Part shown: piece by piece, positions 5,290 to 64,000 of the stretch
Numbering within the stretch: the first letter of the stretch is position 1
Layout: each line of letters opens with the position of its first letter
Assembly (NCBI GenBank): GCA_000002435.2
Contig: CM018793.1
Length of the DNA: 64,000 nt
Origin: Giardia intestinalis
Taxonomy: Eukaryota
Reading direction: 5' to 3' (one strand)
The notes under the pieces: model-generated
What the model saw: only the letters and a program-made list of their open reading frames with translations
Databases searched by the model: none
What the model was told of the DNA's origin: nothing
Position numbers and translations under genes: made by a program

Positions 5290-5302
5290 TTTTTTTTTTT
5301 TT
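5290..5302 (-). repeat. Poly(A) tail (13 nt) of copy E1, directly abutting the ATG of E0
   Basis: Plus strand reads catgg ttttttttttttt cagagg. Confidence 0.9.
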
Positions 5303-10761: not shown

Positions 10762-10763
10762 GG

Positions 10764-10777
10764 TTTTTTTTTTTTTT
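10764..10777 (-). repeat. Poly(A) tail (14 nt) of copy E2
   Basis: Homopolymer at a unit boundary. Confidence 0.9.
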
Positions 10778-12906: not shown

Positions 12907-15900
12907 CTAGCGCCCCGTGTCGATGCGTTTGAAGGGGTAGAAGCCATCAGGGGCATGCGGCTTGGGAGGACCGACGCGCTTGAAGAAGGACGGCAGGGCC
13001 TTGTGCACCGGCTCGGGTGCTCCTGCATCGTCGGGGCTGTCGTCATCCAGTGGAGGCGGGGAGGGGGCCCTTGAGCACATGAAGGGGTCTGGGCGTTCGT
13101 TTGCATCCGGCTGTGCGGGGTGATCGGTGCCCCAGGTGATCGAGGAGGAGACCTCAGCAGGACCCCAGGGAGGAGGGACTGCCGCATCAGGATGCTGGCT
13201 GAGATCGGCCATGATCTCTACGGAGGGCGACGTGCCAGGGCTCCACATGGCAGGGGTGAGGGGAGTAGGAGGAGTAGCCCGAGCCTCGTTGGGAGCCGGT
13301 TCCGGCAGGGATACTGCAGGGGCGGGGCGGTGCACCGGCCTCTCCACTCGCAGCCCAGCGTACAGGAGGGCCGACAGCCTGTAGTGCCAGAGGATGACCT
13401 GCGCCGCCTCCTGCATGAAGCGCGCAAGGTCCACGCCGGCGAACGCGAGTCCGGCCGCAGACAGGTGGTGCAGGACGCCGTCAGCACCGACCACGACGGG
13501 GAGGATGTGGGCCGCCCGCCCCTGGAGCACGAGGGGGCGATACTTGGCGGCCTTCAGGGCATAGGACCGCTCCAGCCTCCACGGGACAGTGACCACCAAG
13601 TCCCCGAAGCCCCCACCGATGACAAGGTCAGGCTGGAGGTGATCCACTGGGATCGTGGGATTGCGCACAACAGACCCAGCGCGACCGCGGGAGCACGCGA
13701 GCAGGGCGTCCAGAATCTTGTCGTGCCGCGCCACGTGAATCCCGTTAATGGCCTTGCACACCAGATGGTGCCTGGGAAGGAAGGGCTGCTTGCAGTGGCA
13801 GCACGTGCCCATCGGCCGGCCCCGCTGGTACCTCCCCGCCAAGCAGTCCCCTATGAACAGGACCTGCGTGTTGTCCAGGGGTGCGCAGCCCAGCAATGCG
13901 AGCGGCAGGAAGGATCGGAGCGCGGCCGTGTCCTGCAGGCGCTTCTTCCTCAGCTCGCGGAAGACGCCCGCCTTCATGTCCTGGCGCTGCCTGTGCATCT
14001 CGTCGTAGTAGTGATGGGGCAGCACCAGTCCGAGGCCGTACTTCGCGCGGGGCGTCAGAGCAAGGGTCTTCGCAAGGGGTTCGGGGATCTCCAGAAGGGT
14101 CGCGACCTCCTCCACTATCTGCGCATCGACGTCGGCATAGGGGGACGGGCCCGGGTAGTCGTCAACAAGGGGTCCATAGTTAACTGCAGGGACGACGCAG
14201 GCAGACAGGAGCCTGAGGCGGTCGTGGAGTGAGAGACCCGAAGCACGGAGGACGGCGAGATGCTCGTGGAGCCGGCGGGCCGATGTCTGCGCGAGGTTGA
14301 AGGAGGAGTGCTTGAGCACGCGGGTGCCCATGAAGGAGATCGCCCCGGCCTGGGTCGAGGAGCACTTCGAGAGCTCGACCGTGAGCCCTATGCGGGAGAG
14401 GGCAGACTGCGCGTCACTCTTCACGGTATCTATGGGAATCGCCTCCTCTGACGCAATGACGAGGTCGTCGGCGTATGCAACGACCTTGTACTGGCCGAGG
14501 TACGTCTCCACCGGCCAGACAAGGCTCTGGCAGAACATCGCCATGGACAGCGGGTCCCCCTGTGGCACGCCCGCTGGGACCGCGGGGAGGTCCGAGGAGT
14601 GCCGAGCCGCGAGGAACGACTCAATGTACGCGACGGTCGGCTGGACCACCCCTGCCCGGCGGAGCGCAAAGAGGATGACGGAATGCGGGACGCTGTTGAA
14701 GGCATTCCGCACATCCACCGTGAGCAGGTGGTGTGTCCTCTTCAGCTCCTCGGCCGCGCGGATCGCCTTCATCTGGGCGAGGTGCTCAAAGGCCAGCTGC
14801 CACGCCGGGAGCTTGCGGAGCGCGGGAGTCCGACGCAGGAGCAAGCGGTGGAAGGCGACCAGAAGCGTCTCCTGCACTGCGATAGGGCGCCATCGGCCGC
14901 CAGACTTGGGCAGAAGCTTCAGCCTGAACTCGCACAGGGGCTGGAGCTGGGCCCAGTTCCTGCTGGAGAAGAGGGTCGTCAGGACAGAGGTGAAGAGCTC
15001 CGCAGCCCCGGCGGCCCCACAAAGGTGCAGGAGGTGAGGCTTCCCCAGCCCAGAGGGTCCGGCCGCGACAGGCCTCATCGCCTGCAGCTCCTTCAGCAGC
15101 GCCTTGGCCGTTATCTTGGGCGACGGGCCGAGCACGTGATGGACGGGGGGCAGAGAGACAGGCATGGGGCGCGGGTGGAGCTCATGGACAATCGCTTCCC
15201 GCTCCTTGCCCTGGGGCTCGGGGACCCTGGCGGCAGAGGACGTCTCGCTCAACAGCGCCTGCCATGCCCGGCCGAGCAGCCCCTTCCGGAGAAGCGACTG
15301 CGCCGGGGGGAGCCGTCCAGAGCCCTCCATGCGGCGGCACGTCGAGAGGAAGCGCGCTAGGGCCTCTACAGGAGGAAGGCGCCCCGCCATCTCTGTGAAT
15401 ACGTCAGTGAGGAGGCGAAGCAGCTCAGGGGACGGGCTGCCACTAGGCACCCCGATGCGCTCGGGGACTGTGGCGTCGAGCGGGAGGTAGTGGCCGAGCC
15501 TGGCGATATGGGCCTTCAGCCCCCTCTCCGTTTTGTATCGGGCCCGGCACATGCTGCATGCATACGGGAACACAGGGTCCGGCGTTGGCGAGGGAGAGGG
15601 CTCGGCGGCTGCAGGTGGAGGGGCAGACCCCGACAGCGGAGAAGGGCTGCGCGACGGAGAAGGTGAACCGGGAGGCGGATGGTGCATCCCGATGTGGACA
15701 TCGATCGCCGCAGAGTCAGGCAGCACCTCTCCGCAGCGCTCGCAGACAGTCGTACGGCCCCCAGGAGCAGGCAGGTCTGCGCCCCGGGCCTCCTGCTCGT
15801 CCGTGATGGACGGGGAGTTGTCGTGGCCCAGGTCGTATGGGAGGCCGTCGTCGGGAATCGGGAGGGGCTCCTGGCCACAGGGCAGAAGGTCGTTCGACAG

Positions 15901-16235
15901 GCAGGGAGGAGAGGCGTCCCGGGCCACCGAGGCCCCGGAGCCCTGTAAGCCATGGACAGGAGAAGACTCATTGGGAGAGTTGTCCGTGGCGGAACGGCTG
16001 TTGCCAGGCCCAGGCTGGGGGATGGGGGCCCGTGGGAGCCGCAGAGGGGCTCGCAAGAGGAAGGCCGGGCCATGGCGGTCGTCGAGGCATCGTTGCCGTC
16101 ACCCAGCGTCATAGGATCGGGAGTGCCCCTAGGTAGGGGCCTGTGGGAGTCGGTTGGAGCGTGGTTGGGAGGCTCTGGGCCTGAGGAAGCCCCGATCTCC
16201 GTGGTTCCCGAAGGCGCGGAAAGGGCGGAACGCAT
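12907..16235 (-). CDS. R2-type RT/endonuclease ORF of copy E2 with one 1-bp frameshift in a G-run near the N-terminus
   Basis: Near 16017, ctgggggatggggg has 5 g where E1 and E0 have 6. The track ORF 12907..16056 (1049 aa) restarts from an in-frame Met just upstream of the shift and still contains every domain. This could be a homopolymer sequencing error. Confidence 0.6.
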
Positions 16236-16237
16236 GG

Positions 16238-16254
16238 TTTTTTTTTTTTTTTTT
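16238..16254 (-). repeat. Poly(A) tail (17 nt) of copy E3
   Basis: Homopolymer at a unit boundary. Confidence 0.9.
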
Positions 16255-18378
16255 AGGGGCGGTTTACTACGTAATATGCGCGCAAGGCGGTAAGGACATT
16301 GGAGGGGAGGCAGCCTCACGACGGAGGGGAAGGGCCCGCCCGGGGCGCCCAGCCCCCGTGCCCGCGTGGTCTCGCGGCGGGGGCGCGGCCAGGGGGGCCT
16401 TCTCCCCAGCTCCAGGGGTATGCTCCTGTGCGCGGGGGCGCGCGGGTCACGGCCAGGGGGGCCAGGCGCTGCAGGCTGTGTGTTAGTGGATCCGCGGAGA
16501 GGGCGGCCTGCGGTGTTAGGGCATAGCGGCATGCAGACATACAGGCCCGAGGGAGGCGTGCCATGTGAGGGGGAGTGGTAGGGGGGCATCCTGGAGGATC
16601 GATGGCGAAGGTGCCGATCCTCCTCCGTGGCGGCGCAGGAGTCCTGGATGAGACGTGATGGCGTGGGTGCTTGGCCTTTGCTCGAGCGCATGGTGTGGGT
16701 GGACCGATTCCCCGCATCCTCCAGGCCCTGCGGGGGCGGTCTTCAGGCCCAAATTCTGGATTTTGGAAAAAATAAAATCCACCATGAGCGTCGCCCCGGC
16801 GCAACCAGCAGGCCCTGGGCCGCGGAAACAAAGAGACAAATAGCCCGTGGACCAAGAAGAGTGCAGGCCTGTTTGGGGGGTAGAAGACGACGCGTCGGGC
16901 CAGAAACCCAGGGATCCAGGATTCCAGTCAAAGGCAGGCCTACAGACCGGCCCACTGCACCGCGCACATACGCGAGGCACCATAATGCTGTTGCACTAAA
17001 AAGGGAAGCGCGAGCCCAGAGAACCGGCGAGGAAACAGCTTGGGGGTGGAGGGGTTTGGGGAGCCCAAATTCTGGCCCATCGACACACGGGGTGAGCTGT
17101 GGCCGGCCCAAGGGGACAGCGTGGACAGGTGTGTGCAGTGCCCCATATAAGGATGCACGATGGGGATCGGCCGGGGCCACCGATTCGGGGGACAAGGGAG
17201 ACGCGTCCGGACTGTCCCCGGGAGTCCGTGAGAAGGGAGGGTGCGGACCGTGCACCATAGCTAGCCCATCCACACGTGTCGTGCTATTCCAGAATGGTGG
17301 CTCACCGGAGGCGTCTGGCCAAGATGGCGGGGGCAGCGGGGCGGTGGTCCCATACGGCCCAGGAGGCCGACAGAAGGTCACGCCTGAGAGAGCAGACTGA
17401 CGGCTTAGGAGGTGGTGTGGGGAGGCACGGGTGATGGAGGAGGCCCCCTAAGGGCGGGTCCAGGCTGATGACGCCAGCTCAGGACAGACCGGCAGAGCGC
17501 CGTGGAGCCATATTCTTCTGTGCGTGCCAGTCCCATCTGTGACAAGCAACCCATGTGGTGCCAGCGCTGGTGGGAGGCATGTGGCCCAGGTATGGAGCGA
17601 AACCTGGGGGCCCGGCCGGGACTGTCAACAGCCGTCACCGCGACTCAGCGGAGACCGAGCAGGAGAGGTAGAGAGGAGCAGGGGAGAATGGGCCAGGCAA
17701 ACACAGGCGCATGAGGGATGGCCCATTGGAGGGCAAGCACCTGGAGGCCAGGGCCAGAGTGACCAGGTTCCCTGTACCGGGGCGCCCAGAGTGGGTACAT
17801 GAGGGGGGCAGTGGGGAAGCGATGCACCCGAGGGCTCAGTAGCACATAGCACCCGGCCATCCTCTCCAGGGGGCACCGGGGCGCTGCAGCAGAGGATGGC
17901 CCGAGCCAGGGCTGTGCCGCCCGGACCGGAGGCGGCCACTGGCGGGCAGTTCCATGGGGGGATCAGCACGGCGCGGTGCGATGGTACGAATGACACACGG
18001 GGCTAGCCTCTTCCCCCAGCACCAGCTCGCCAGACTCAGCACCCAAGGACCGCCGCTGCCCGGGAGGACAGACAGACGAACACCGGGCTGCGGCGTGGGC
18101 AGATGACGAGTCCATCGAGGAAGTGCCCAAACGTAGGCAGGGCGGGTGTCTGGCCATCCAGGGGGGCGTCCGGCCTGGCCCGGCCTGGTCGAGTGTGTAT
18201 GGCATCGCGGCTAGGCATCTATCGCACCGTGTCTGGACGTGATGCACACCCGAATGATAGGGGCAAGAGGCCTCGGGTGCGAGCGAGGAGTACCAGGGGA
18301 GACAGCTCGGCACGCAGGCCCAGGGGTCCGTTCGCGCTGTGGGGCAGCCGACAGCGGGCAGGGTGCCCAGCATGACCA

Positions 18379-21300
18379 CTAGCGCCCCGTGTCGATGCGT
18401 TTGAAGGGGTAGAAGCCATCAGGGGCATGCGGCTTGGGAGGACCGACGCGCTTGAAGAAGGACGGCAGGGCCTTGTGCACCGGCTCGGGTGCTCCTGCAT
18501 CGTCGGGGCTGTCGTCATCCAGTGGAGGCGGGGAGGGGGCCCTTGAGCACATGAAGGGGTCTGGGCGTTCGTTTGCATCCGGCTGTGCGGGGTGATCGGT
18601 GCCCCAGGTGATCGAGGAGGAGACCTCAGCAGGACCCCAGGGAGGAGGGACTGCCGCATCAGGATCTGGCTGAGATCGGCCATGATCTCTACGGAGGGCG
18701 ACGTGCCAGGGCTCCACATGGCAGGGGTGAGGGGAGTAGGAGGAGTAGCCCGAGCCTCGTTGGGAGCCGGTTCCGGCAGGGATACTGCAGGGGCGGGGCG
18801 GTGCACCGGCCTCTCCACTCGCAGCCCAGCGTACAGGAGGGCCGACAGCCTGTAGTGCCAGAGGATGACCTGCGCCGCCTCCTGCATGAAGCGCGCAAGG
18901 TCCACGCCGGCGAACGCGAGTCCGGCCGCAGACAGGTGGTGCAGGACGCCGTCAGCACCGACCACGACGGGGAGGATGTGGGCCGCCCGCCCCTGGAGCA
19001 CGAGGGGGCGATACTTGGCGGCCTTCAGGGCATAGGACCGCTCCAGCCTCCACGGGACAGTGACCACCAAGTCCCCGAAGCCCCCACCGATGACAAGGTC
19101 AGGCTGGAGGTGATCCACTGGGATCGTGGGATGCGCACAACAGACCCAGCGCGACCGCGGGAGCACGCGAGCAGGGCGTCCAGAATCTTGTCGTGCCGCG
19201 CCACGTGAATCCCGTTAATGGCCTTGCACACCAGATGGTGCCTGGGAAGGAAGGGCTGCTTGCAGTGGCAGCACGTGCCCATCGGCCGGCCCCGCTGGTA
19301 CCTCCCCGCCAAGCAGTCCCCTATGAACAGGACCTGCGTGTTGTCCAGGGGTGCGCGCCCAGCAATGCGAGCGGCAGGAAGGACGGAGCGCGGCCGGTGT
19401 CCTGCAGGCGCTCTTCCTCAGCTCGCGGAAGACGCCCGCCTTCATGTCCTGGCGCTGCCTGTGCATCTCGTCGAGTAGTGAGGGGCAGCACCAGTCCGAG
19501 GCCGACTTCGCGCGGGGCGTCAGAGCAAGGGTCTTCGCAAGGGGTTCGGGGATCTCCAGAAGGGTCGCGACCTCCTCCACTATCTGCGCATCGACGTCGG
19601 CATAGGGGGACGGGCCCGGGTAGTCGTCACAAGGGGTCCATAGTTAACTGCAGGGACGACGCAGGCAGACAGGAGCCTGAGGCGTCGTGGAGGAGAGAAC
19701 CCGAACACGGAGGACGGCGAGATGCTCGTGGAGCGGCGGGCCGATGTCTGCGCGAGGTTGAAGGAGGAGTGCTTGAGCACGCGGGTGCCCATGAAGGAGA
19801 TCGCCCCGGCCTGGGTCGAGGAGCACTTCGAGAGCTCGACCGTGAGCCCTATGCGGAGAGGGCAGACTGCGCGTCACTCTTCACGGTACTATGGGAATCG
19901 CCTCCTCTGACGCAATGACGAGGTCGTCGGCGTATGCAACGACCTTGTACTGGCCGAGGTACGTCTCCACCGGCCAGACCAAGGCTCTGGCAGAACATCG
20001 CCATGGACAGCGGGTCCCCCTGCACGCCCGCTGGACGCGGGGAGGTCCGAGAGTGCGAGCCGCGAGAACGACTCAAGTACGCGACGGTCGGCTGGACACC
20101 CCTGCCCGGCGGAGCGCAAAGAGGAGACGGAAGCGGGACGCTGTGAAGGCATTCCGCACATCACCGGAGCAGTGGTGGTCCTCTTCAGCTCCTCGGCCGC
20201 GCGGATCGCCTTCATCTGGCGAGGTGCTCAAGCCAGCTGCCACGCCGGGAGCTTGCGGAGCGCGGGAGTCCGACGCAGGAGCAAGCGGTGGAAGGCGACC
20301 AGAAGCGTCTCCTGCACTGCGATAGGGCGCCATCGCCGCCAGACTTGGGCAGAAGCTTCAGCCTGAACTCGCACGGGGCTGGAGCGGGCCCAGTTCCTGC
20401 TGGAGGAAGAGGGTCGTCAGACAGAGGGAAGAGCTCCGCAGCCCCGGCGCCCCACAAAGGTGCAGGAGGGAGGCTTCCCCAGCCCAGAGGGTCCGCCGCG
20501 ACAGGCCCATCGGCCTGCAGCTCCTCAGCAGCGCCTGGCCGTTATCTTGGGCGACGGGCCGAGCACGTGATGGACGGGGGCGAGAGACAGGCATGGGCGC
20601 GGGTGGAGCTCATGGACAATCGCTTCCCGCTCCTTGCCCTGGGGCTCGGGACCCTGGCGGCAGAGGACGTCTCGCTCAACAGCGCCTGCCATGCCCGGCC
20701 GAGCAGCCCCTTCCGGAGAAGCGACTGCGCCGGGGGGAGCCGTCCAGAGCCCTCCATGCGGCGGCACGTCGAGAGGAAGCGCGCTAGGGCCTCTACAGGA
20801 GGAGGCGCCCCGCCATCTCTGTGAATACGTCAGTGAGGAGGCGAAGCAGCTCAGGGGACGGCTGCCACAGGCACCCGATGCGCTCGGGGACTGTGGCGTC
20901 GAGCGGGAGGTAGTGGCCGAGCCTGGCGATATGGGCCTTCAGCCCCCTCTCCGTTTGTATCGGGCCCGGCACATGCTGCATGCATACGGGAACACAGGGT
21001 CCGGCGTTGGCGAGGGAGAGGGCTCGGCGGCTGCAGGTGGAGGGCAGACCCCGACAGCGGAGAAGGGCTGCGCGACGGAGAAGGTGAACCGGGAGGCGGA
21101 TGTGCATCCCGATGTGGACATCGATCGCCGCAGAGTCAGGCAGCACCTCTCCGCAGCGCTCGCAGACAGTCGTACGGCCCCAGGAGCAGGCAGGTCTGCG
21201 CCCCCCTCCGCTCGTGTCGGGCCCAGGTCGTATGGGAGGCCGTCGTCGGCGGGAGGGCTCCTGGCCACAGGCCGACAGGCAGGGAGGAGAGGCGTCCCGG

Positions 21301-21613
21301 GCCACCGAGGCCCCGGAGCCCTGTAAGCCATGGACAGGAGAAGACTCATTGGGAGAGTTGTCCGTGGCGGAACGGCTGTTGCCAGGCCCAGGCTGGGGGA
21401 TGGGGGCCCGTGGGAGCCGCAGAGGGGCTCGCAAGAGGAAGGCCGGGCCATGGCGGTCGTCGAGGCATCGTTGCCGTCACCCAGCGTCATAGGATCGGGA
21501 GTGCCCCTAGGTAGGGGCCTGTGGGAGTCGGTTGGAGCGTGGTTGGGAGGCTCTGGGCCTGAGGAAGCCCCGATCTCCGTGGTTCCCGAAGGCGCGGAAA
21601 GGGCGGAACGCAT
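18379..21613 (-). pseudogene. Degenerate R2-type ORF of copy E3 (many frameshifts)
   Basis: Only fragments remain in the ORF track (18379..18717, 18219..19166, 19025..19312, 19215..19580, 20793..21434, 20939..21613). They carry recognisable pieces of the E1 protein, interrupted by numerous 1-bp deletions. Confidence 0.8.
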
Positions 21614-21615
21614 GG

Positions 21616-21630
21616 TTTTTTTTTTTTTTT
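21616..21630 (-). repeat. Poly(A) tail (15 nt) of copy E4
   Basis: Homopolymer at a unit boundary. Confidence 0.9.
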
Positions 21631-23734
21631 AGGGCGGTTTACTACGTAATATGCGCGCAAGGCGGTAAGGACATTGGAGGGGAGGCAGCCTCACGACGGA
21701 GGGGAAGGGCCCGCCGGGGCGCCCAGCCCCCGTGCCCGCGTGGTCTCGCGGCGGGGCGCGGCCAGGGGGGCTTCTCCCCAGCTCCAGGGTATGCTCCTGT
21801 GCGCGGGGCGCGCGGGTCACGGCCAGGGGGGCCAGGCGCTGCAGGCTGTGTGTTAGTGGATCCGCGGAGAGGGCGGCCTGCGGTGTTAGGGCATAGCGGC
21901 ATGCAGACATACAGGCCCGAGGGAGGCGTGCCATGTGAGGGGAGTGGTAGGGGGCATCCTGGAGGATCGATGGCGAAGGTGCCGATCCTCCTCCGTGGCG
22001 GCGCAGGAGTCCTGGATGAGACGTGATGGCGTGGGTGCTTGGCCTTTGCTCGAGCGCATGGTGTGGGTGGACCGATCCCCGCATCCTCCAGGCCCTGCGG
22101 GGCGGTCTTCAGGCCCAAATTCTGGATTTTGGAAAAAATAAATCCACCATGAGCGTCGCCCGGCGCAACCAGCAGGCCCTGGGCCGCGGAAACAAGAGAC
22201 AAATAGCCCGTGGACCAAGAAGAGTGCAGGCCTGTTTGGGGGTAGAAGACGACGCGTCGGGCCAGAAACCCAGGGATCCAGGATTCCAGTCAAAGGCAGG
22301 CCTACAGACCGGCCCACTGCACCGCGCACATACGCGAGGCACCATAATGCTGTTGCACTAAAAAGGGAAGCGCGAGCCCAGAGAACCGGCGAGGAAACAG
22401 CTTGGGGGTGGAGGGGTTTGGGGAGCCCAAATTCTGGCCCATCGACACACGGGGTGAGCTGTGGCCGGCCCAAGGGGACAGCGTGGACAGGTGTGTGCAG
22501 TGCCCCATATAAGGATGCACGATGGGGATCGGCCGGGGCCACCGATTCGGGGGACAAGGGAGACGCGTCCGGACTGTCCCCGGGAGTCCGTGAGAAGGGA
22601 GGGTGCGGACCGTGCGCCATAGCTAGCCCATCCACACGTGTCGTGCTATTCCAGAATGGTGGCTCACCGGAGGCGTCTGGCCAAGATGGCGGGGGCAGCG
22701 GGGCGGTGGTCCCATACGGCCCAGGAGCCGACAGAAGGTCACGCCTGAGAGAGCAGACTGACGGCTTAGGAGGTGGTGTGGGGAGGCACGGGTGATGGAG
22801 GAGGCCCCCTAAGGGCGGGTCCAGGCTGATGACGCCAGCTCAGGACAGACCGGCAGAGCGCCGTGGAGCCATATTCTTCTGTGCGTGCCAGTCCCATCTG
22901 TGACAAGCAACCCATGTGGTGCCAGCGCTGGAGGCATGTGGCCCAGGTATGGAGCGAAACCTGGGGGCCCGGCCGGACTGTCAACAGCCGTCACCGCGAC
23001 TCAGCGGAGACCGAGCAGGAGAGGTAGAGAGGAGCAGGGGAGAATGGGCCAGGCAAACACAGGCGCATGAGGATGGCCCATTGGAGGGCAAGCACCTGGA
23101 GGCCAGGGCCAGAGTGACCAGGTTCCCTGTACCGGGGCGCCCAGAGTGGGTACATGAGGGGGGCAGTGGGGAAGCGATGCACCCGAGGGCTCAGTAGCAC
23201 ATAGCACCCGGCCATCCTCTCCAGGGGGCACCGGGGCGCTGCAGCAGAGGATGGCCCGAGCCAGGGCTGTGCCGCCCCGGACCGGAGGCGGCCACTGGCG
23301 GGCAGTTCCATGGGGGATCAGCACGGCGCGGTGCGATGGTACGAATGACACACGGGGCTAGCCTCTTCCCCCAGCACCAGCTCGCCAGACTCAGCACCCA
23401 AGGACCGCCGCTGCCCGGAGGACAGACAGACGAACACCGGGCTGCGGCGTGGGCAGATGACGAGTCCCATCGAGGAAGTGCCCAAACGTAGGCAGGGCGG
23501 GTGTCTGGCCATCCAGGGGGGCGTCCGGCCTGGCCCGGCCTGGTCGAGTGTGTATGGCATCGCGGCTAGGCATCTATCGCACCGTGTCTGGACGTGATGC
23601 ACACCCGAATGATAGGGGCAAGAGGCCTCGGGTGCGAGCGAGGAGTACCAGGGGAGACAGCTCGGCACGCAGGCCCAGGGGTCCGTTCGCGCTGTGGGGC
23701 AGCCGACAGCGGGCAGGGTGCCCAAGCATGACCA

Positions 23735-24838
23735 CTAGCGCCCCGTGTCGATGCGTTTGAAGGGGTAGAAGCCATCAGGGGCATGCGGCTTGGGAGGACC
23801 GACGCGCTTGAAGAAGGACGGCAGGGCCTTGTGCACCGGCTCGGGTGCTCCTGCATCGTCGGGGCTGTCGTCATCCAGTGGAGGCGGGAGGGGGCCCTTG
23901 AGCACATGAAGGGGTCTGGGCGTTCGTTTGCATCCGGCTGTGCGGGGTGATCGGTGCCCCAGGTGATCGAGGAGGAGACCTCAGCAGGACCCCAGGGAGG
24001 AGGACTGCCGCATCAGGATGCTGGCTGAGATCGGCCATGATCTCTACGGAGGGCGACGTGCCAGGGCTCCACATGGCAGGGGTGAGGGGAGTAGGAGGAG
24101 TAGCCCGAGCCTCGTTGGGAGCCGGTTCCGGCAGGGATACTGCAGGGGCGGGGCGGTGCACCGGCCTCTCCACTCGCAGCCCAGCGTACAGGAGGGCCGA
24201 CAGCCTGTAGTGCCAGAGGATGACCTGCGCCGCCTCCTGCATGAAGCGCGCAAGGTCCACGCCGGCGAACGCGAGTCCGGCCGCAGACAGGTGGTGCAGG
24301 ACGCCGTCAGCACCGACCACGACGGGGAGGATGTGGGCCGCCCGCCCCTGGAGCACGAGGGGGCGATACTTGGCGGCCTTCAGGGCATAGGACCGCTCCA
24401 GCCTCCACGGGACAGTGACCACCAAGTCCCCGAAGCCCCCACCGATGACAAGGTCAGGCTGGAGGTGATCCACTGGGATCGTGGGATTGCGCACAACAGA
24501 CCCAGCGCGACCGCGGGAGCACGCGAGCAGGGCGTCCAGAATCTTGTCGTGCCGCGCCACGTGAATCCCGTTAATGGCCTTGCACACCAGATGGTGCCTG
24601 GGAAGGAAGGGCTGCTTGCAGTGGCAGCACGTGCCCATCGGCCGGCCCCGCTGGTACCTCCCCGCCAAGCAGTCCCCTATGAACAGGACCTGCGTGTCCA
24701 GGGGTGCGCCCCAGCAATGCGAGCGGCAGGAAGGATCGGAGCGCGGCCGTGTCCTGCAGGCGCTTCTTCCTCAGCTCGCGGAAGACGCCCGCCTTCATGT
24801 CCTGGCGCTGCCTGTGCATCTCGTCGTAGTAGTGATGG
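23735..24838 (-). pseudogene. 5'-truncated, frameshifted R2-type ORF remnant of copy E4 (C-terminal ~365 aa; CCHC and RLE region present)
   Basis: Track ORF 23871..24668 contains CCHCKQPFLPRHH...PDLVIGGGFGDLVVTV. Small indels are present. Homology stops at 24838. Confidence 0.8.
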
Positions 24839-25004
24839 CTGCGCCGGCCGCCCCGCCCCACAGGCCCGGGCTGGAGTCAAGCTCAAAAGGGTCTTCTTGC
24901 CCCGCTGGCCGGCCCTCGCCGTTCCCGAGGCTGGAGGCTCGCGGAGGCGCGGCTCGGGACAGTGGGATCCTCGTTGGTCCATTCATGCACGTCGGAAATT
25001 GCCC

Positions 25005-25041
<37 letters not shown>

Positions 25042-26703
25042 TCCCGCCGTTTACCAGGTTCGGCGGATCGTTCACGGTGACGGTCGTGGCACTGGGCAGA
25101 AATCACGTCGCGCCAGCGCCGGGTGCGGCCCTCGCGACGCTGTGTTTCTAGTAAACAGTCGGGATCCCCGCGTCCGTTCCAGTTCTGACCCGGCGCGCCG
25201 TCAGAGCCACTCCTTTTCCGAGGTTACGGAGCCGGCTTGCCGACTTCCCTGAGCCGCGTTCGCTCCCGCGCTAGAGGCTGCTGACCCGGAGTCCTTGCTG
25301 CGGTCGGTACGTGCGCGCGGCCGGCGCCCCCGCGTTTTCAGGGGCGGGCCGGGACGCGCGGGTCCGCCCCGGCCCCCCTCTCGCGCGCAGGCGTCCGGGG
25401 GACTGCGGGGCGTTCGCGGCGCGGGCGCGCCCGCCGCGTTCCCCGATGCGCGTCCGCGCGGGGGCGGGCGTTCCCCGCGGGGTGGCCGCGTGCCGAGAGT
25501 CTTCCGCCGGCTCCCCGTTCGCGGAGCGGCACGCCCCTATCCCGGTCTCACCCGCCGCTTAGGCCCGAGTCACCCGGCGGCCAGAATGCGCGCCGCGGAA
25601 CCCGTCTCCCCCTCAGTCCTCCGGGGCGGGAGTTAGCGCGCTAGCTGCCGGCATTCTGCACCAGAGGCCGGCCGGCCGGGGCCTAGGCGCGCCGCCTCGC
25701 CCCCGGGGCCTCTGCGGCCTCCTACCCGCCGCGCGCGGCGGCCGGGCGCGAGTCCGGGGCCCGGCGCGCTCCTTTTCCGGGCCGGCCGTATCGCTGGTGG
25801 GTTGTTACACACTCTGGAGGATGCCGACTTCTGGGGCCACCTTCCAGCTGTCGGGACCGGCGACGCCGTTCCGCGGGCCCGGCGCGCACTCCTGGCCCGC
25901 CGTCCGGCTCGTCCCGCCTCGCCCGTCCTGCTTACCAGGAGGGCCACGCGCCGCCCGCATTCGCCGCCCCCCCATCCAGCGGCGGGGCGGCGCGAGCCCT
26001 TCGGATTTGCGGGCGGGGAGCGGCCCCCGCTCCCGCCGGCCAGCGCTCTACGGGCCGCAACTGCGGGGCGGCGGCTGTCCTGGGAGACATTTCGGAGGCA
26101 ACCAGCTACCAGGCGTTCGATGAGTCTTTCGCCCCATGCCCGGCTCCGACGAGCGATCTGCGCGTCAGCACCGCGGCGGCCTCCACCAGGCTTTCGCCCG
26201 GCCTCGCCTCGCCGGGCATAGATCACCGCCTTTCGGGCCCACGCGCCGCGGGCTCGGCCCGCGCACGCCCGCAGGGGCATGGCGGCCCGGCGTCTCGCGC
26301 TCGCTCCGCCCGGGGCTCCTCGGGCTCGCCGCGGCGCGGTGGCTTCTCGGTCCGTGTTTCGAGACGGGCCGGGGCCGGCGGCCGGCCGTCTCAGGCTCTT
26401 TGAGCGGCCGCAGGCGTCCTTTCCTTCGCTCGCCTACTTGGCCGCTATCGGTCCCGGGGGTATTTAGCCTGTAAGGGCCGCGCCTCCCTTCGCGCTGCAC
26501 GCTCAAGCGCTACTCGCCGCGCAGGCCCGGCGGCGCCGTTGGGGCTTGCACCCTCTCGCGGGCTCGGGCCCTCCGCGGGCCTGCGCCTGCGCCCACAGCG
26601 CGCCTTCGGGGCGGGCTCCTCCCGCGTCGCTCGCCGCTACGGGGAATCCCGGTTGGTTTCTCCTCCGGGGCGTACTGATATGCTTAAGTTCGCCCGTCGC
26701 GCC
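24839..26703 (-). rRNA. 28S (LSU) rRNA-like sequence, 5' ~1.85 kb. It is degenerate and GC-converted and lacks the expansion segments, so it is a probable pseudogene
   Basis: Reverse complement shows conserved LSU blocks in the correct order: GAACTTAAGCATATCAG..GGATTCCCCGTAGCGGCGAGCGA, CCCGTCTCGAAACACGGACCGAG, GGCGAAAGACTCATCGAACGCCTGGTAGCTGGTTGCCTCCGAAATGTCTCCCAGGACAGC, GTGTAACAACCCACC, GGGAAGTCGGCAAGCCGGCTCCGTAACCTCGG, CGACTGTTTACTAGAAACACAGC, GGTAAACGGCGGGATAACTATGACTCTCTTAAGGTAGCCAAATGCCTCG, GCATGAATGGACCAACGAGGATCCCACTGTCCC and AAGAAGACCCTTTTGAGCTTGACTCC. There are many A/T to G/C changes and deletions relative to canonical eukaryotic 28S. Confidence 0.85.
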
Positions 26704-26774
26704 CCGCCTCGGGCCCCAGCCCGGCGGGACCGCCCCGGGGCGCTCTCTGCGCGCCGGCGCGCGGCACGCGGCGG

Positions 26775-26890
26775 GCGCCGGCGGCCCGCCGGGGCGCGCT
26801 GCGTTCGAGGGTCGGTGCTTCTCGGGCGGCGGGTCGACCCGCGTCTCGCGCTCCGCGCGCTCTTCGTCGCCGCCCGGGCCGAGGCATCCG
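26775..26890 (-). pseudogene. 5.8S rRNA-like relic, shrunken to ~110 nt and flanked by vestigial ITS2 (~26704-26774) and ITS1 (~26891-26940)
   Basis: Reverse complement GGATGCCTCGGCCCGGGCGGCGACGAAGAGCGCGCGGAGCGCGAG...CCTCGAACGCAGCGCGCCCCGG aligns to 5.8S GGATCACTCGGCTCGTGCGTCGATGAAGAACGCAGCTAGCTGCGAG...CTTCGAACGCACTTGCGGCCCCGG with an AT to GC bias and a deletion. Confidence 0.6.
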
Positions 26891-26940
26891 CCGGCGGGGC
26901 GTTCGGGGCCGACCGGCCGCGGGGCGACGCGCGGGGCCGC

Positions 26941-27161
26941 GAGGGATCCATCCGCAGGTTCACCTACGGATACCTTGTTACGACTTCTCCTTCCTCCAGG
27001 CGCGGGGGCTCGCGGCCCTTCGCGCGTCCGGGGCGCTCGCCGCCGCGCCCATCGGTAGGAGCGACGGGCGGTGTGTACAAGGGGCAGGGACGCGTCCGGC
27101 GCGCGGTGGGGGCGGGCGCCTACAAGACATTCCTGGTGCGCGGGGCGTTCCAGCCCGCGGT
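26941..27161 (-). rRNA. 18S (SSU) rRNA-like 3' end, a degenerate pseudogene copy that continues into the assembly gap
   Basis: Reverse complement GGAATGTC...CCCTGCCCCTTGTACACACCGCCCGTCGCTCCTACCGATGGG...GAAGTCGTAACAAGGTATCCGTAGGTGAACCTGCGGATGGATCCCTC matches the universal SSU 3' domain (GTACACACCGCCCGTCGC; GTCGTAACAAGGTTTCCGTAGGTGAACCTGCGGAAGGATCATTA). The near-universal 3' terminus GATCATTA is mutated to GATCCCTC. Confidence 0.85.
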
Positions 27162-30100
27162 NNNNNNNNNNNNNNNNNNNNNNNNNNNNNNNNNNNNNNN
27201 NNNNNNNNNNNNNNNNNNNNNNNNNNNNNNNNNNNNNNNNNNNNNNNNNNNNNNNNNNNNNNNNNNNNNNNNNNNNNNNNNNNNNNNNNNNNNNNNNNNN
27301 NNNNNNNNNNNNNNNNNNNNNNNNNNNNNNNNNNNNNNNNNNNNNNNNNNNNNNNNNNNNNNNNNNNNNNNNNNNNNNNNNNNNNNNNNNNNNNNNNNNN
27401 NNNNNNNNNNNNNNNNNNNNNNNNNNNNNNNNNNNNNNNNNNNNNNNNNNNNNNNNNNNNNNNNNNNNNNNNNNNNNNNNNNNNNNNNNNNNNNNNNNNN
27501 NNNNNNNNNNNNNNNNNNNNNNNNNNNNNNNNNNNNNNNNNNNNNNNNNNNNNNNNNNNNNNNNNNNNNNNNNNNNNNNNNNNNNNNNNNNNNNNNNNNN
27601 NNNNNNNNNNNNNNNNNNNNNNNNNNNNNNNNNNNNNNNNNNNNNNNNNNNNNNNNNNNNNNNNNNNNNNNNNNNNNNNNNNNNNNNNNNNNNNNNNNNN
27701 NNNNNNNNNNNNNNNNNNNNNNNNNNNNNNNNNNNNNNNNNNNNNNNNNNNNNNNNNNNNNNNNNNNNNNNNNNNNNNNNNNNNNNNNNNNNNNNNNNNN
27801 NNNNNNNNNNNNNNNNNNNNNNNNNNNNNNNNNNNNNNNNNNNNNNNNNNNNNNNNNNNNNNNNNNNNNNNNNNNNNNNNNNNNNNNNNNNNNNNNNNNN
27901 NNNNNNNNNNNNNNNNNNNNNNNNNNNNNNNNNNNNNNNNNNNNNNNNNNNNNNNNNNNNNNNNNNNNNNNNNNNNNNNNNNNNNNNNNNNNNNNNNNNN
28001 NNNNNNNNNNNNNNNNNNNNNNNNNNNNNNNNNNNNNNNNNNNNNNNNNNNNNNNNNNNNNNNNNNNNNNNNNNNNNNNNNNNNNNNNNNNNNNNNNNNN
28101 NNNNNNNNNNNNNNNNNNNNNNNNNNNNNNNNNNNNNNNNNNNNNNNNNNNNNNNNNNNNNNNNNNNNNNNNNNNNNNNNNNNNNNNNNNNNNNNNNNNN
28201 NNNNNNNNNNNNNNNNNNNNNNNNNNNNNNNNNNNNNNNNNNNNNNNNNNNNNNNNNNNNNNNNNNNNNNNNNNNNNNNNNNNNNNNNNNNNNNNNNNNN
28301 NNNNNNNNNNNNNNNNNNNNNNNNNNNNNNNNNNNNNNNNNNNNNNNNNNNNNNNNNNNNNNNNNNNNNNNNNNNNNNNNNNNNNNNNNNNNNNNNNNNN
28401 NNNNNNNNNNNNNNNNNNNNNNNNNNNNNNNNNNNNNNNNNNNNNNNNNNNNNNNNNNNNNNNNNNNNNNNNNNNNNNNNNNNNNNNNNNNNNNNNNNNN
28501 NNNNNNNNNNNNNNNNNNNNNNNNNNNNNNNNNNNNNNNNNNNNNNNNNNNNNNNNNNNNNNNNNNNNNNNNNNNNNNNNNNNNNNNNNNNNNNNNNNNN
28601 NNNNNNNNNNNNNNNNNNNNNNNNNNNNNNNNNNNNNNNNNNNNNNNNNNNNNNNNNNNNNNNNNNNNNNNNNNNNNNNNNNNNNNNNNNNNNNNNNNNN
28701 NNNNNNNNNNNNNNNNNNNNNNNNNNNNNNNNNNNNNNNNNNNNNNNNNNNNNNNNNNNNNNNNNNNNNNNNNNNNNNNNNNNNNNNNNNNNNNNNNNNN
28801 NNNNNNNNNNNNNNNNNNNNNNNNNNNNNNNNNNNNNNNNNNNNNNNNNNNNNNNNNNNNNNNNNNNNNNNNNNNNNNNNNNNNNNNNNNNNNNNNNNNN
28901 NNNNNNNNNNNNNNNNNNNNNNNNNNNNNNNNNNNNNNNNNNNNNNNNNNNNNNNNNNNNNNNNNNNNNNNNNNNNNNNNNNNNNNNNNNNNNNNNNNNN
29001 NNNNNNNNNNNNNNNNNNNNNNNNNNNNNNNNNNNNNNNNNNNNNNNNNNNNNNNNNNNNNNNNNNNNNNNNNNNNNNNNNNNNNNNNNNNNNNNNNNNN
29101 NNNNNNNNNNNNNNNNNNNNNNNNNNNNNNNNNNNNNNNNNNNNNNNNNNNNNNNNNNNNNNNNNNNNNNNNNNNNNNNNNNNNNNNNNNNNNNNNNNNN
29201 NNNNNNNNNNNNNNNNNNNNNNNNNNNNNNNNNNNNNNNNNNNNNNNNNNNNNNNNNNNNNNNNNNNNNNNNNNNNNNNNNNNNNNNNNNNNNNNNNNNN
29301 NNNNNNNNNNNNNNNNNNNNNNNNNNNNNNNNNNNNNNNNNNNNNNNNNNNNNNNNNNNNNNNNNNNNNNNNNNNNNNNNNNNNNNNNNNNNNNNNNNNN
29401 NNNNNNNNNNNNNNNNNNNNNNNNNNNNNNNNNNNNNNNNNNNNNNNNNNNNNNNNNNNNNNNNNNNNNNNNNNNNNNNNNNNNNNNNNNNNNNNNNNNN
29501 NNNNNNNNNNNNNNNNNNNNNNNNNNNNNNNNNNNNNNNNNNNNNNNNNNNNNNNNNNNNNNNNNNNNNNNNNNNNNNNNNNNNNNNNNNNNNNNNNNNN
29601 NNNNNNNNNNNNNNNNNNNNNNNNNNNNNNNNNNNNNNNNNNNNNNNNNNNNNNNNNNNNNNNNNNNNNNNNNNNNNNNNNNNNNNNNNNNNNNNNNNNN
29701 NNNNNNNNNNNNNNNNNNNNNNNNNNNNNNNNNNNNNNNNNNNNNNNNNNNNNNNNNNNNNNNNNNNNNNNNNNNNNNNNNNNNNNNNNNNNNNNNNNNN
29801 NNNNNNNNNNNNNNNNNNNNNNNNNNNNNNNNNNNNNNNNNNNNNNNNNNNNNNNNNNNNNNNNNNNNNNNNNNNNNNNNNNNNNNNNNNNNNNNNNNNN
29901 NNNNNNNNNNNNNNNNNNNNNNNNNNNNNNNNNNNNNNNNNNNNNNNNNNNNNNNNNNNNNNNNNNNNNNNNNNNNNNNNNNNNNNNNNNNNNNNNNNNN
30001 NNNNNNNNNNNNNNNNNNNNNNNNNNNNNNNNNNNNNNNNNNNNNNNNNNNNNNNNNNNNNNNNNNNNNNNNNNNNNNNNNNNNNNNNNNNNNNNNNNNN

Positions 30101-33100
30101 NNNNNNNNNNNNNNNNNNNNNNNNNNNNNNNNNNNNNNNNNNNNNNNNNNNNNNNNNNNNNNNNNNNNNNNNNNNNNNNNNNNNNNNNNNNNNNNNNNNN
30201 NNNNNNNNNNNNNNNNNNNNNNNNNNNNNNNNNNNNNNNNNNNNNNNNNNNNNNNNNNNNNNNNNNNNNNNNNNNNNNNNNNNNNNNNNNNNNNNNNNNN
30301 NNNNNNNNNNNNNNNNNNNNNNNNNNNNNNNNNNNNNNNNNNNNNNNNNNNNNNNNNNNNNNNNNNNNNNNNNNNNNNNNNNNNNNNNNNNNNNNNNNNN
30401 NNNNNNNNNNNNNNNNNNNNNNNNNNNNNNNNNNNNNNNNNNNNNNNNNNNNNNNNNNNNNNNNNNNNNNNNNNNNNNNNNNNNNNNNNNNNNNNNNNNN
30501 NNNNNNNNNNNNNNNNNNNNNNNNNNNNNNNNNNNNNNNNNNNNNNNNNNNNNNNNNNNNNNNNNNNNNNNNNNNNNNNNNNNNNNNNNNNNNNNNNNNN
30601 NNNNNNNNNNNNNNNNNNNNNNNNNNNNNNNNNNNNNNNNNNNNNNNNNNNNNNNNNNNNNNNNNNNNNNNNNNNNNNNNNNNNNNNNNNNNNNNNNNNN
30701 NNNNNNNNNNNNNNNNNNNNNNNNNNNNNNNNNNNNNNNNNNNNNNNNNNNNNNNNNNNNNNNNNNNNNNNNNNNNNNNNNNNNNNNNNNNNNNNNNNNN
30801 NNNNNNNNNNNNNNNNNNNNNNNNNNNNNNNNNNNNNNNNNNNNNNNNNNNNNNNNNNNNNNNNNNNNNNNNNNNNNNNNNNNNNNNNNNNNNNNNNNNN
30901 NNNNNNNNNNNNNNNNNNNNNNNNNNNNNNNNNNNNNNNNNNNNNNNNNNNNNNNNNNNNNNNNNNNNNNNNNNNNNNNNNNNNNNNNNNNNNNNNNNNN
31001 NNNNNNNNNNNNNNNNNNNNNNNNNNNNNNNNNNNNNNNNNNNNNNNNNNNNNNNNNNNNNNNNNNNNNNNNNNNNNNNNNNNNNNNNNNNNNNNNNNNN
31101 NNNNNNNNNNNNNNNNNNNNNNNNNNNNNNNNNNNNNNNNNNNNNNNNNNNNNNNNNNNNNNNNNNNNNNNNNNNNNNNNNNNNNNNNNNNNNNNNNNNN
31201 NNNNNNNNNNNNNNNNNNNNNNNNNNNNNNNNNNNNNNNNNNNNNNNNNNNNNNNNNNNNNNNNNNNNNNNNNNNNNNNNNNNNNNNNNNNNNNNNNNNN
31301 NNNNNNNNNNNNNNNNNNNNNNNNNNNNNNNNNNNNNNNNNNNNNNNNNNNNNNNNNNNNNNNNNNNNNNNNNNNNNNNNNNNNNNNNNNNNNNNNNNNN
31401 NNNNNNNNNNNNNNNNNNNNNNNNNNNNNNNNNNNNNNNNNNNNNNNNNNNNNNNNNNNNNNNNNNNNNNNNNNNNNNNNNNNNNNNNNNNNNNNNNNNN
31501 NNNNNNNNNNNNNNNNNNNNNNNNNNNNNNNNNNNNNNNNNNNNNNNNNNNNNNNNNNNNNNNNNNNNNNNNNNNNNNNNNNNNNNNNNNNNNNNNNNNN
31601 NNNNNNNNNNNNNNNNNNNNNNNNNNNNNNNNNNNNNNNNNNNNNNNNNNNNNNNNNNNNNNNNNNNNNNNNNNNNNNNNNNNNNNNNNNNNNNNNNNNN
31701 NNNNNNNNNNNNNNNNNNNNNNNNNNNNNNNNNNNNNNNNNNNNNNNNNNNNNNNNNNNNNNNNNNNNNNNNNNNNNNNNNNNNNNNNNNNNNNNNNNNN
31801 NNNNNNNNNNNNNNNNNNNNNNNNNNNNNNNNNNNNNNNNNNNNNNNNNNNNNNNNNNNNNNNNNNNNNNNNNNNNNNNNNNNNNNNNNNNNNNNNNNNN
31901 NNNNNNNNNNNNNNNNNNNNNNNNNNNNNNNNNNNNNNNNNNNNNNNNNNNNNNNNNNNNNNNNNNNNNNNNNNNNNNNNNNNNNNNNNNNNNNNNNNNN
32001 NNNNNNNNNNNNNNNNNNNNNNNNNNNNNNNNNNNNNNNNNNNNNNNNNNNNNNNNNNNNNNNNNNNNNNNNNNNNNNNNNNNNNNNNNNNNNNNNNNNN
32101 NNNNNNNNNNNNNNNNNNNNNNNNNNNNNNNNNNNNNNNNNNNNNNNNNNNNNNNNNNNNNNNNNNNNNNNNNNNNNNNNNNNNNNNNNNNNNNNNNNNN
32201 NNNNNNNNNNNNNNNNNNNNNNNNNNNNNNNNNNNNNNNNNNNNNNNNNNNNNNNNNNNNNNNNNNNNNNNNNNNNNNNNNNNNNNNNNNNNNNNNNNNN
32301 NNNNNNNNNNNNNNNNNNNNNNNNNNNNNNNNNNNNNNNNNNNNNNNNNNNNNNNNNNNNNNNNNNNNNNNNNNNNNNNNNNNNNNNNNNNNNNNNNNNN
32401 NNNNNNNNNNNNNNNNNNNNNNNNNNNNNNNNNNNNNNNNNNNNNNNNNNNNNNNNNNNNNNNNNNNNNNNNNNNNNNNNNNNNNNNNNNNNNNNNNNNN
32501 NNNNNNNNNNNNNNNNNNNNNNNNNNNNNNNNNNNNNNNNNNNNNNNNNNNNNNNNNNNNNNNNNNNNNNNNNNNNNNNNNNNNNNNNNNNNNNNNNNNN
32601 NNNNNNNNNNNNNNNNNNNNNNNNNNNNNNNNNNNNNNNNNNNNNNNNNNNNNNNNNNNNNNNNNNNNNNNNNNNNNNNNNNNNNNNNNNNNNNNNNNNN
32701 NNNNNNNNNNNNNNNNNNNNNNNNNNNNNNNNNNNNNNNNNNNNNNNNNNNNNNNNNNNNNNNNNNNNNNNNNNNNNNNNNNNNNNNNNNNNNNNNNNNN
32801 NNNNNNNNNNNNNNNNNNNNNNNNNNNNNNNNNNNNNNNNNNNNNNNNNNNNNNNNNNNNNNNNNNNNNNNNNNNNNNNNNNNNNNNNNNNNNNNNNNNN
32901 NNNNNNNNNNNNNNNNNNNNNNNNNNNNNNNNNNNNNNNNNNNNNNNNNNNNNNNNNNNNNNNNNNNNNNNNNNNNNNNNNNNNNNNNNNNNNNNNNNNN
33001 NNNNNNNNNNNNNNNNNNNNNNNNNNNNNNNNNNNNNNNNNNNNNNNNNNNNNNNNNNNNNNNNNNNNNNNNNNNNNNNNNNNNNNNNNNNNNNNNNNNN

Positions 33101-63100: not shown

Positions 63101-64000
63101 NNNNNNNNNNNNNNNNNNNNNNNNNNNNNNNNNNNNNNNNNNNNNNNNNNNNNNNNNNNNNNNNNNNNNNNNNNNNNNNNNNNNNNNNNNNNNNNNNNNN
63201 NNNNNNNNNNNNNNNNNNNNNNNNNNNNNNNNNNNNNNNNNNNNNNNNNNNNNNNNNNNNNNNNNNNNNNNNNNNNNNNNNNNNNNNNNNNNNNNNNNNN
63301 NNNNNNNNNNNNNNNNNNNNNNNNNNNNNNNNNNNNNNNNNNNNNNNNNNNNNNNNNNNNNNNNNNNNNNNNNNNNNNNNNNNNNNNNNNNNNNNNNNNN
63401 NNNNNNNNNNNNNNNNNNNNNNNNNNNNNNNNNNNNNNNNNNNNNNNNNNNNNNNNNNNNNNNNNNNNNNNNNNNNNNNNNNNNNNNNNNNNNNNNNNNN
63501 NNNNNNNNNNNNNNNNNNNNNNNNNNNNNNNNNNNNNNNNNNNNNNNNNNNNNNNNNNNNNNNNNNNNNNNNNNNNNNNNNNNNNNNNNNNNNNNNNNNN
63601 NNNNNNNNNNNNNNNNNNNNNNNNNNNNNNNNNNNNNNNNNNNNNNNNNNNNNNNNNNNNNNNNNNNNNNNNNNNNNNNNNNNNNNNNNNNNNNNNNNNN
63701 NNNNNNNNNNNNNNNNNNNNNNNNNNNNNNNNNNNNNNNNNNNNNNNNNNNNNNNNNNNNNNNNNNNNNNNNNNNNNNNNNNNNNNNNNNNNNNNNNNNN
63801 NNNNNNNNNNNNNNNNNNNNNNNNNNNNNNNNNNNNNNNNNNNNNNNNNNNNNNNNNNNNNNNNNNNNNNNNNNNNNNNNNNNNNNNNNNNNNNNNNNNN
63901 NNNNNNNNNNNNNNNNNNNNNNNNNNNNNNNNNNNNNNNNNNNNNNNNNNNNNNNNNNNNNNNNNNNNNNNNNNNNNNNNNNNNNNNNNNNNNNNNNNNN
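27162..64000. other. Assembly gap (run of N)
   Basis: 36,839 consecutive n characters. Nothing can be interpreted here. Confidence 1.

Follow-up and report, generated by a model that had tools for sequence, protein, structure and literature searches.

A head-to-tail GilM retrotransposon array joined to a 3′-truncated large-subunit rRNA gene on a chromosome-end contig of Giardia duodenalis

The GilM array and its rDNA flank

We analyzed a 64,000-nt window of the Giardia intestinalis (Giardia duodenalis) genome (assembly GCA_000002435.2, contig CM018793.1), in which only bases 1–27161 are sequence and 27162–64000 are a run of Ns. The window is a chromosome-end contig of G. duodenalis WB: a head-to-tail array of the non-LTR (long terminal repeat) retrotransposon GilM is fused in it to a 3′-truncated large-subunit (LSU, 28S) rRNA gene of subtelomeric ribosomal DNA (rDNA). 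The contig is 27 kb in length, contains repeats only, and ends in a gap. Its features are listed below (ORF, open reading frame; UTR, untranslated region; RT, reverse transcriptase; RLE, restriction-like endonuclease; ITS, internal transcribed spacer; SSU, small subunit).

1..5289, minus strand: GilM copy c1; 5′ end complete (CCATG at 5289), ~185 nt short of the poly(A) at the contig start; boundary set by poly(A) plus CCATGCG
5290..10763, minus strand: GilM copy c2, full, 5,474 nt; ORF at 7432–10761 (1109 aa), ~2.1 kb 3′ UTR, A13 tail
10764..16237, minus strand: GilM copy c3, 5,474 nt, A14 tail, nearly identical to c2
16238..21615, minus strand: GilM copy c4, 5,378 nt, A17 tail, numerous 1-nt deletions in the 5′ half
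21616..24838, minus strand: 5′-truncated GilM, 3,223 nt from unit nt 2222 (codon 740); CCHC/RLE endonuclease region, 3′ UTR and A15 kept, RT domain missing
24838..24839, minus strand: joint between 28S and GilM; overlap of 1 nt (C), no filler, no telomere repeats
24839..26708, minus strand: 3′-truncated LSU rRNA gene, first ~70% (~1,935 nt in the numbering of the reference L001, see below); cut at about Rfam model position 2463
25007..25027, minus strand: conserved rRNA core equal to the canonical R2 target, uninterrupted; exact 21-mer match, Rfam model position ~2265–2290
26709..26948, minus strand: ITS2/5.8S/ITS1 interval, unsplit, lying between the LSU and SSU matches; assigned from rDNA gene order
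26949..27161, minus strand: 3′ end of the SSU rRNA gene (Rfam RF01960 at 26949–27073, 108.6 bits); the contig stops within the gene
27162..64000, no strand: N run, scaffold gap; fits the gap flanked by partial 18S genes at the WB chromosome 5 5′ end (PMC7000408)

Tandem Repeats Finder gave no result (period >500), and the array was resolved by a general repeat search as a direct repeat of ~5,475 bp on the minus strand, present in at least 4.5 copies with spacings of 5474/5475. All four internal boundaries consist of A13–17 followed directly by CCATG, i.e., the units are arranged head-to-tail from poly(A) to CCATG. A full unit opens with CCATG, whose ATG is the ORF start, and therefore has essentially no 5′ UTR; it continues with a 3,330-nt ORF, a ~2.1 kb 3′ UTR and a tail of A13–A17. 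Truncation at the 5′ end was confined to the unit facing the rDNA.

The 1109-aa ORF (7432–10761, minus strand) was 100% identical to the NCBI protein [quoted passage not shown], 100% identical over 1068 aa to AAL47180.1 (P0028), and 100% identical to KAE8301202-4. The Pfam domain RVT_1 occupies aa 443–639, with YADD at 588, a CCHC motif at 812 and the endonuclease motifs RHDK/PDLVI/DLVVTV at 837–884. Since the protein identity, the 5,474-bp unit and the head-to-tail array all match published GilM, the element, judged by sequence, is GilM, a known telomere-associated RLE-type non-LTR retrotransposon, and not R2. The layout of the R2 clade, a single ORF with RT, then CCHC, then an RLE of the PD-(D/E)xK type, was nevertheless found in it. 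The closest match in the PDB was the R2 protein 9nl2 (E=6e-9), with weak co-linear alignment in the zinc-finger and CCHC/endonuclease regions. GilM and Genie 1 (Burke et al. 2002) may be one family, although Genie was equated with GilT in PMC12857005. In RT phylogenies GilM falls outside R2, as CRE-like or basal (PMC10088271, PMC12857005), and it served as an outgroup in PMC4640811. Reviews of Arkhipova and Morrison 2001 describe GilM and GilT as telomere-associated elements in unidirectional head-to-tail arrays, with 5′ truncation ascribed to terminal erosion (PMC5537684, PMC10999387); both elements have long 3′ UTRs (PMC5537684).

The copies differ in sequence quality. Copy c3 departs from c2 by no substitutions, one insertion and one deletion, whereas c4 departs from c2 by 102 deleted bases, 6 inserted bases and 30 substitutions. 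The 3′ part of c1, c4 and the truncated copy differ from c2/c3 mostly by 1-nt deletions (regions 1–2300, 19100–21615, and 21616–24838, respectively). In the truncated copy, 17 of the 21 deletions fell in homopolymers of at least 3 nt, compared with ~20% of the bases in such runs. We read these deletion-biased differences as noise of a poorly polished long-read consensus rather than decay. The frameshifted ORFs of the noisy copies are therefore probably artefacts.

The placement of the contig was compared with the published assembly. For WB chromosome 5, Xu et al. 2020 placed "approximately four copies" of GilM, one copy being 5,474 bp in length, at the 5′ end, where the largest gap is bordered by two partial 18S genes (PMC7000408). 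The window closely fits this description; therefore, its Ns are most likely the scaffold gap at the chromosome 5 5′ end. According to a comparison with Be-2, the "5-prime region of Chr5" with about four GilM copies is misassembled, its proper place being the 3′ region of Chr4, and the gaps lack long-read support (PMC11169602).

Several other traits of the GilM units were recorded. The 3′ ends are of two forms: copies c2 and c3 end with ...AAACCGCCTCTG(A13–14), c4 with ...CCGCCCCTA(A17), and the truncated copy with ...CCGCCCTA(A15). In c4 and the truncated copy, a CCCTA unit resembling the telomere repeat immediately precedes the poly(A) (16238–16270 and 21616–21645; the corresponding ends of c2/c3 are at 5290–5315 and 10764–10790). 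The two forms may be real, reflecting independent retrotransposition and a telomere-complementary 3′ end, or they may be noise.

For comparison, four related loci (L002–L005) were found via GilM-like proteins in three other assemblies/isolates (P15 GCA_000182665.1, GCA_000498735.1, and GCA_000498715.1). The last 170–250 nt of the GilM 3′ UTR (5290–5540 and its equivalents) were 76–85% identical to the families of P15 (regions compared: L002 13–182 and 5770–5992; L004 5953–6195), while the ORFs were only ~66% identical. By analogy with HeT-A, this conserved 3′ terminal module, located directly upstream of the next ATG, is a candidate RT-recognition site and/or downstream promoter.

A 1374-aa ORF (1616–5740, minus strand) runs from the 3′ UTR of the upstream unit through the poly(A), translated as KKKK, in frame into the next ORF, and the NCBI annotation contains a 1223-aa variant (KAE8304591.1). 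The 1374-aa ORF probably results from tail length and indel noise and shows how scantly successive units are separated. On the plus strand, every GilM unit is traversed by antisense ORFs of 370–377 aa (2153–3283, 7645–8757, 13120–14232, and 24018–25151, the last one crossing the joint) and by further ones of 253 and 257 aa, which probably reflect the G+C content of 66%. Antisense GilM-type transcripts have been reported in the literature. A count of strict G-quadruplex motifs in the window did not reveal the strand asymmetry of PMC10088271 and was not used for orientation.

The truncated rRNA gene and its joint with GilM

The LSU rRNA gene was identified by the Rfam model RF02543 (eukaryotic) at 24912–26697 on the minus strand, with 448 bits and E=1e-118. 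As an intact reference we used L001, a 2,293-bp human-gut metagenome contig carrying Giardia LSU rDNA (1,197 bits), which was obtained from a pattern scan of metagenome contigs. By blastn homology to L001, the 3′ part of 28S is absent from the whole window.

The homology between the window and L001 stops exactly at window position 24838. In the alignment of the five element copies, GilM identity begins at CCATCAC, at 24838 on the minus strand. As the end of L001 homology and the start of element identity fall on the same base, the break is 24839|24838, with one ambiguous C and no filler. L001 and the window share ...GGCCGGCGCAG-C-, followed by GCACAGGGG in L001 and by CATCACTAC in the window; in a longer view across the break, L001 is ...GGGGCGGGGCGGCCGGCGCAG C GCACAGGGGAGG... 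and the window is ...GGGGCGGGGCGGCCGGCGCAG C CATCACTACTACGACGAG. The GilM sequence begins, in sense orientation, with unit nt 2222 in codon 740 of 1109 (...LPHHYYDEMH), which lies between the RT active site (YADD 588) on one side and the CCHC motif (812) and the endonuclease motifs (837–884) on the other. The joint is 183 nt past the R2 cleavage point (184 with the shared C). The original prediction had described ~180 bp of further 28S past that point, a switch at 24838/24839, and entry into the middle of the element ORF in the same orientation, and each of these points agrees with our alignments. It had also placed the joint away from both the R2 and the R1 sites, which was borne out.

Microhomology or imperfect homology at the joint was limited to 1 nt. 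Direct reading of the 28S sequence at the joint revealed no resemblance to either of the two usual attachment sequences of GilM. Full units start with CCATGCG (10755–10763) and the truncated copy with CCATCAC (24832–24838). The shared CCAT, a coincidence of 3–4 nt, might point to a motif favored for nicking or attachment but has no statistical weight by itself.

The 21-mer TTAAGGTAGCCAAATGCCTCG had a single exact match in the window, on the minus strand at 25027–25007, where chance alone would give 0 matches. The cleavage point of R2, GG|TA, falls at 25022|25021 (plus-strand complement ggcta/ccttaa at 25017–25027). The R2 insertion site TTAAGG|TAGCCAAATGCC is thus present and uninterrupted, as had been predicted, and the array is not inserted at it. 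Since this 21-mer is a universally conserved LSU core found in any 28S, the empty R2 site carries no information, and an "unoccupied target" is uninformative in Giardia. The view of the locus in terms of R2 was therefore misleading: the element is GilM, and the 21-mer is an ordinary part of the rRNA core.

In the local Rfam alignment the R2 motif lies at about LSU model position 2275 and the break at about 2463; the helix that is cut there, within its 5′ arm, belongs by our own reading to the H76–78 region. A 1-nt deletion was found 13 nt upstream of the R2 motif (minus strand, 25036–25050): the window has GGGA-TAACTATGAC, while L001 and the Rfam consensus have GGGAGUAACUAUGAC. This deletion in the universally conserved GGGAGUAACUAUGAC core is either an error or a real lesion. 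Overall, the rDNA copy had 90.9% identity with L001, which may come from another assemblage, with many indels and weak homopolymer enrichment. The description of the copy as an old, degenerate pseudogene was rejected as an established fact: the differences among the GilM copies, concentrated near the contig ends and in c4, look like consensus noise. In the rDNA, with its weak homopolymer enrichment and a reference that may be from another assemblage, the copy may or may not be degenerate beyond its truncation.

Origin of the joint

The orientation of GilM-type arrays was read from the related loci. In L003 (GCA_000498735.1, AHHH01000009.1), the elements have unique genes (RING, VSP) next to their 3′ side, and on the 5′ side they extend to the contig end. 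L005 (isolate DH, GCA_000498715.1, AHGT01000152.1) consists of A12-CCATG, a full GilM ending in ...ATATAGTAAATTC(CCCTA)~4, and then a 5′-truncated GilT-like element, 94% identical to P0006 from ~aa 211. At 5493–5512 of this locus the GilM end ...GTAAATTC runs directly into (CCCTA)~4 without poly(A). Read on the other strand, L005 is an eroded element that was capped by (TAGGG)n and to which GilM was then added by its 3′ end; the junction with telomere repeats, which here are interstitial to a retrotransposon array, is consistent with GilM reverse transcription primed on the telomeric G-strand end. Both loci, as well as the reviews, place the 5′ ends of GilM-type arrays toward the telomere and the 3′ end proximally. 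The reported order in the subtelomere is unique genes, transposable elements, rDNA, and telomere (PMC10999387). With 5′-distal arrays and rDNA following the transposable elements, a boundary between the 5′ end of an array and rDNA is therefore predicted. Ends bearing rDNA undergo ~1% rearrangement per division (PMC3091692), and the annotation of the WB assembly includes 5 partial and 12 pseudo 28S genes (PMC7000408).

With moderate confidence, we regard the joint as the scar of a chromosome-end rearrangement at the DNA level, in which an eroded array end was joined to a broken rDNA unit. With the 5′ end of the array toward the telomere, the outermost unit would be exposed to terminal erosion or breakage, and its eroded 5′ end would have gained a broken rDNA unit rather than a new telomerase cap. 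Break-induced replication or end joining may have captured or copied an rDNA-bearing end, or two eroded ends may have fused head to head. The 28S coordinate at the joint would then be arbitrary and the nearby R2 motif incidental. The truncation of the outermost unit only is in line with this scheme because erosion would produce exactly that. We infer that DNA repair, not reverse transcription, was the origin of the joint, and the same applies to the repair pathway. A later deletion or recombination had been named in the original prediction as an alternative, and it has become our preferred explanation at the same, roughly even, level of belief.

Several facts weigh against a rearrangement scar. 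The sequence that would decide the matter, on the 3′ side of the array, falls outside the contig, and an insertion into 28S may have taken place. The 1-nt overlap and the sense-sense orientation are equally compatible with a 5′ junction produced by target-primed reverse transcription (TPRT). Telomere repeats (TAGGG) were absent from the window, the direction of the telomere being deduced from other loci. We failed to find a second copy of the 28S–GilM joint in other assemblies. Finally, in the published WB scaffold the GilM array lies outside the rDNA gap, which would reverse the expected orientation; we rejected the scaffold orientation as evidence because the placement has no long-read support (PMC11169602).

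An opportunistic retrotransposition event is unlikely, though it is a live rival. GilM cDNA would have been integrated by TPRT, endonuclease-independent or off-target, where a subtelomeric 28S gene carried a nick or double-strand break; a stop of the RT within the ORF would have produced a 5′-truncated founder, and the full downstream units would have been added later or by unequal exchange. The sense-sense orientation, the 5′-truncated copy and the 1-nt overlap without filler all suit this route. A sense-sense, 5′-truncated, filler-free junction is the classical appearance of a non-LTR 5′ junction, as in L1 and R2. The R2-like layout of GilM (zinc fingers, RT, CCHC, and RLE) also fits, and the original argument that a 5′-truncated copy keeps its upstream flank up to the insertion point was sound. 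However, the other GilM 5′ ends of the array are all precise and full length, and the GilM attachments on record are to its own 5′ end or to telomere repeats, neither of which the 28S site resembles. The 5′-distal orientation and the order of transposable elements and then rDNA predict the boundary without any insertion. This route would further require the remainder of 28S, resuming at about ...CGCACAGGGGAGG, past the far side of the array, which lies outside the contig. The proposal of a non-canonical integration into a dead rDNA unit survives as a rival and is not the reading that we favor.

It is improbable that the joint is an assembly chimera of two high-copy repeats (GilM in at least 9 copies, rDNA in tens) within a short PacBio contig lying at the end of a scaffold. 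Such an origin would agree with the 27-kb repeat-only contig ending in a gap, with the deletion-biased noise of the GilM copies, homopolymer-enriched in the junction copy, and with the published misassembly in the scaffold placement of this region (PMC11169602). An independent record of the joint was also not found. Exact-protein look-ups of the ORFs at 25633–26280 (rDNA) and 24018–25151 (across the joint) and of the GilM proteins P0001 and P0026 returned no record, the WB assembly seemingly not being indexed. When the 377-aa antisense ORF that crosses the joint was used as a homology query, one short rDNA-type match, covering 14% of it, was returned and no independent copy of the joint. None of 35 related proteins (22 search matches, 12 other members of the P0001 cluster, and P0024) had a non-GilM N-terminus suggestive of a fusion with 28S. 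On the other hand, an overlap-based misassembly requires shared sequence, and only 1 nt is shared here; noise is comparatively low over ~400 nt on the rDNA side and at the start of the element side; a consensus contig would normally need several reads across the joint; and the reported misassembly concerns gaps, not the contig interior.

We consider it very improbable that the joint is a product of reverse transcription, in which an uncapped, eroded GilM end with the 3′-OH ...GATGG primed reverse transcription of pre-rRNA and a chromosome end was healed with a cellular RNA, or that it marks a second specific LSU target (in the region assigned to H76–78) of the GilM endonuclease, which would make GilM an rDNA-targeting RLE lineage in a deep-branching eukaryote.

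The least credible explanation is a real sequence-specific target of GilM, or of a sub-lineage, located ~183 nt past the R2 site of the LSU rRNA gene: RLE non-LTR elements are typically target-specific and often use rRNA genes, according to PMC4640811, and the orientation is that of R2 in 28S, but there is one junction only, the other four of four boundaries in the window are GilM-GilM, no rRNA was found in four of four related loci (L002–L005, GilM or GilT-like units, a small sample), one of which is attached to telomere repeats by the GilM 3′ end, the joint lies in a G+C-rich helix arm judged variable rather than in a universally conserved block, and the intact Giardia LSU L001 is uninterrupted at this coordinate. 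For the same reasons, the suggestion of an RLE element with a different 28S target gained no support. Recurrent insertion at one rRNA-gene coordinate, of the R1, R4, R5, R6, R9 or RT type, was not observed, which in so small a sample is a weak negative, and other genomic copies in L002–L005 showed no reuse of one 28S coordinate.

Comparison with known systems

The element, its arrays and their closeness to terminal rDNA are already known. GilM as described by Arkhipova and Morrison 2001 has the same protein, 5,474-bp unit, poly(A) head-to-tail array, long 3′ UTR and location at a chromosome end near rDNA; the element itself shows no difference, and only the joint to 28S is set apart. A description of this joint was not found in a literature search, the primary GilM papers being outside its reach, and it may already be documented. 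The joint reveals no new element, target specificity or mechanism. If it is real, a single breakpoint shows recombination of retrotransposon arrays with terminal rDNA, which bears on the karyotype instability of Giardia. Two cautions follow: the R2 motif is a universal rRNA core, not to be taken as an "empty site", and this region of the reference genome is mis-scaffolded and poorly polished.

In GilM as in R2, one ORF encodes N-terminal zinc fingers, RT, CCHC and an endonuclease of the PD-(D/E)xK type, and both elements are in sense orientation to 28S. In contrast to R2, the GilM units flank each other and not 28S, and the R2 site is uninterrupted, with the joint 183 nt downstream.

With HeT-A, TART and TAHRE of Drosophila telomeres, GilM shares terminal head-to-tail arrays with the 3′ end proximal, truncation by erosion and unusually long 3′ UTRs (PMC5537684). 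Unlike these elements, GilM has an RLE endonuclease, Giardia retains telomerase and TAGGG repeats, and the GilM units in the window are precise and full length rather than truncated to varying degrees. Since the next GilM unit starts right after the upstream tail, sequences of the upstream unit probably drive it.

The L005 locus, with its GilM 3′ end fused to (CCCTA)n without poly(A), is similar to TRAS/SART and MoTeR elements and suggests priming on the telomeric G-strand. In the window, by contrast, the units adjoin each other, one adjoins rDNA, and telomere repeats are missing.

The joint can also be compared with the abrupt rDNA–telomere junctions and the mobile telomeric rDNA of Giardia (Adam et al. 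1991; Le Blancq et al. 1991-92, as cited in PMC10999387 and PMC3091692). A truncated terminal rRNA gene, an abrupt switch of sequence and frequent rearrangement are common to both, whereas the partner of the rRNA gene here is a truncated retrotransposon instead of TAGGG repeats.

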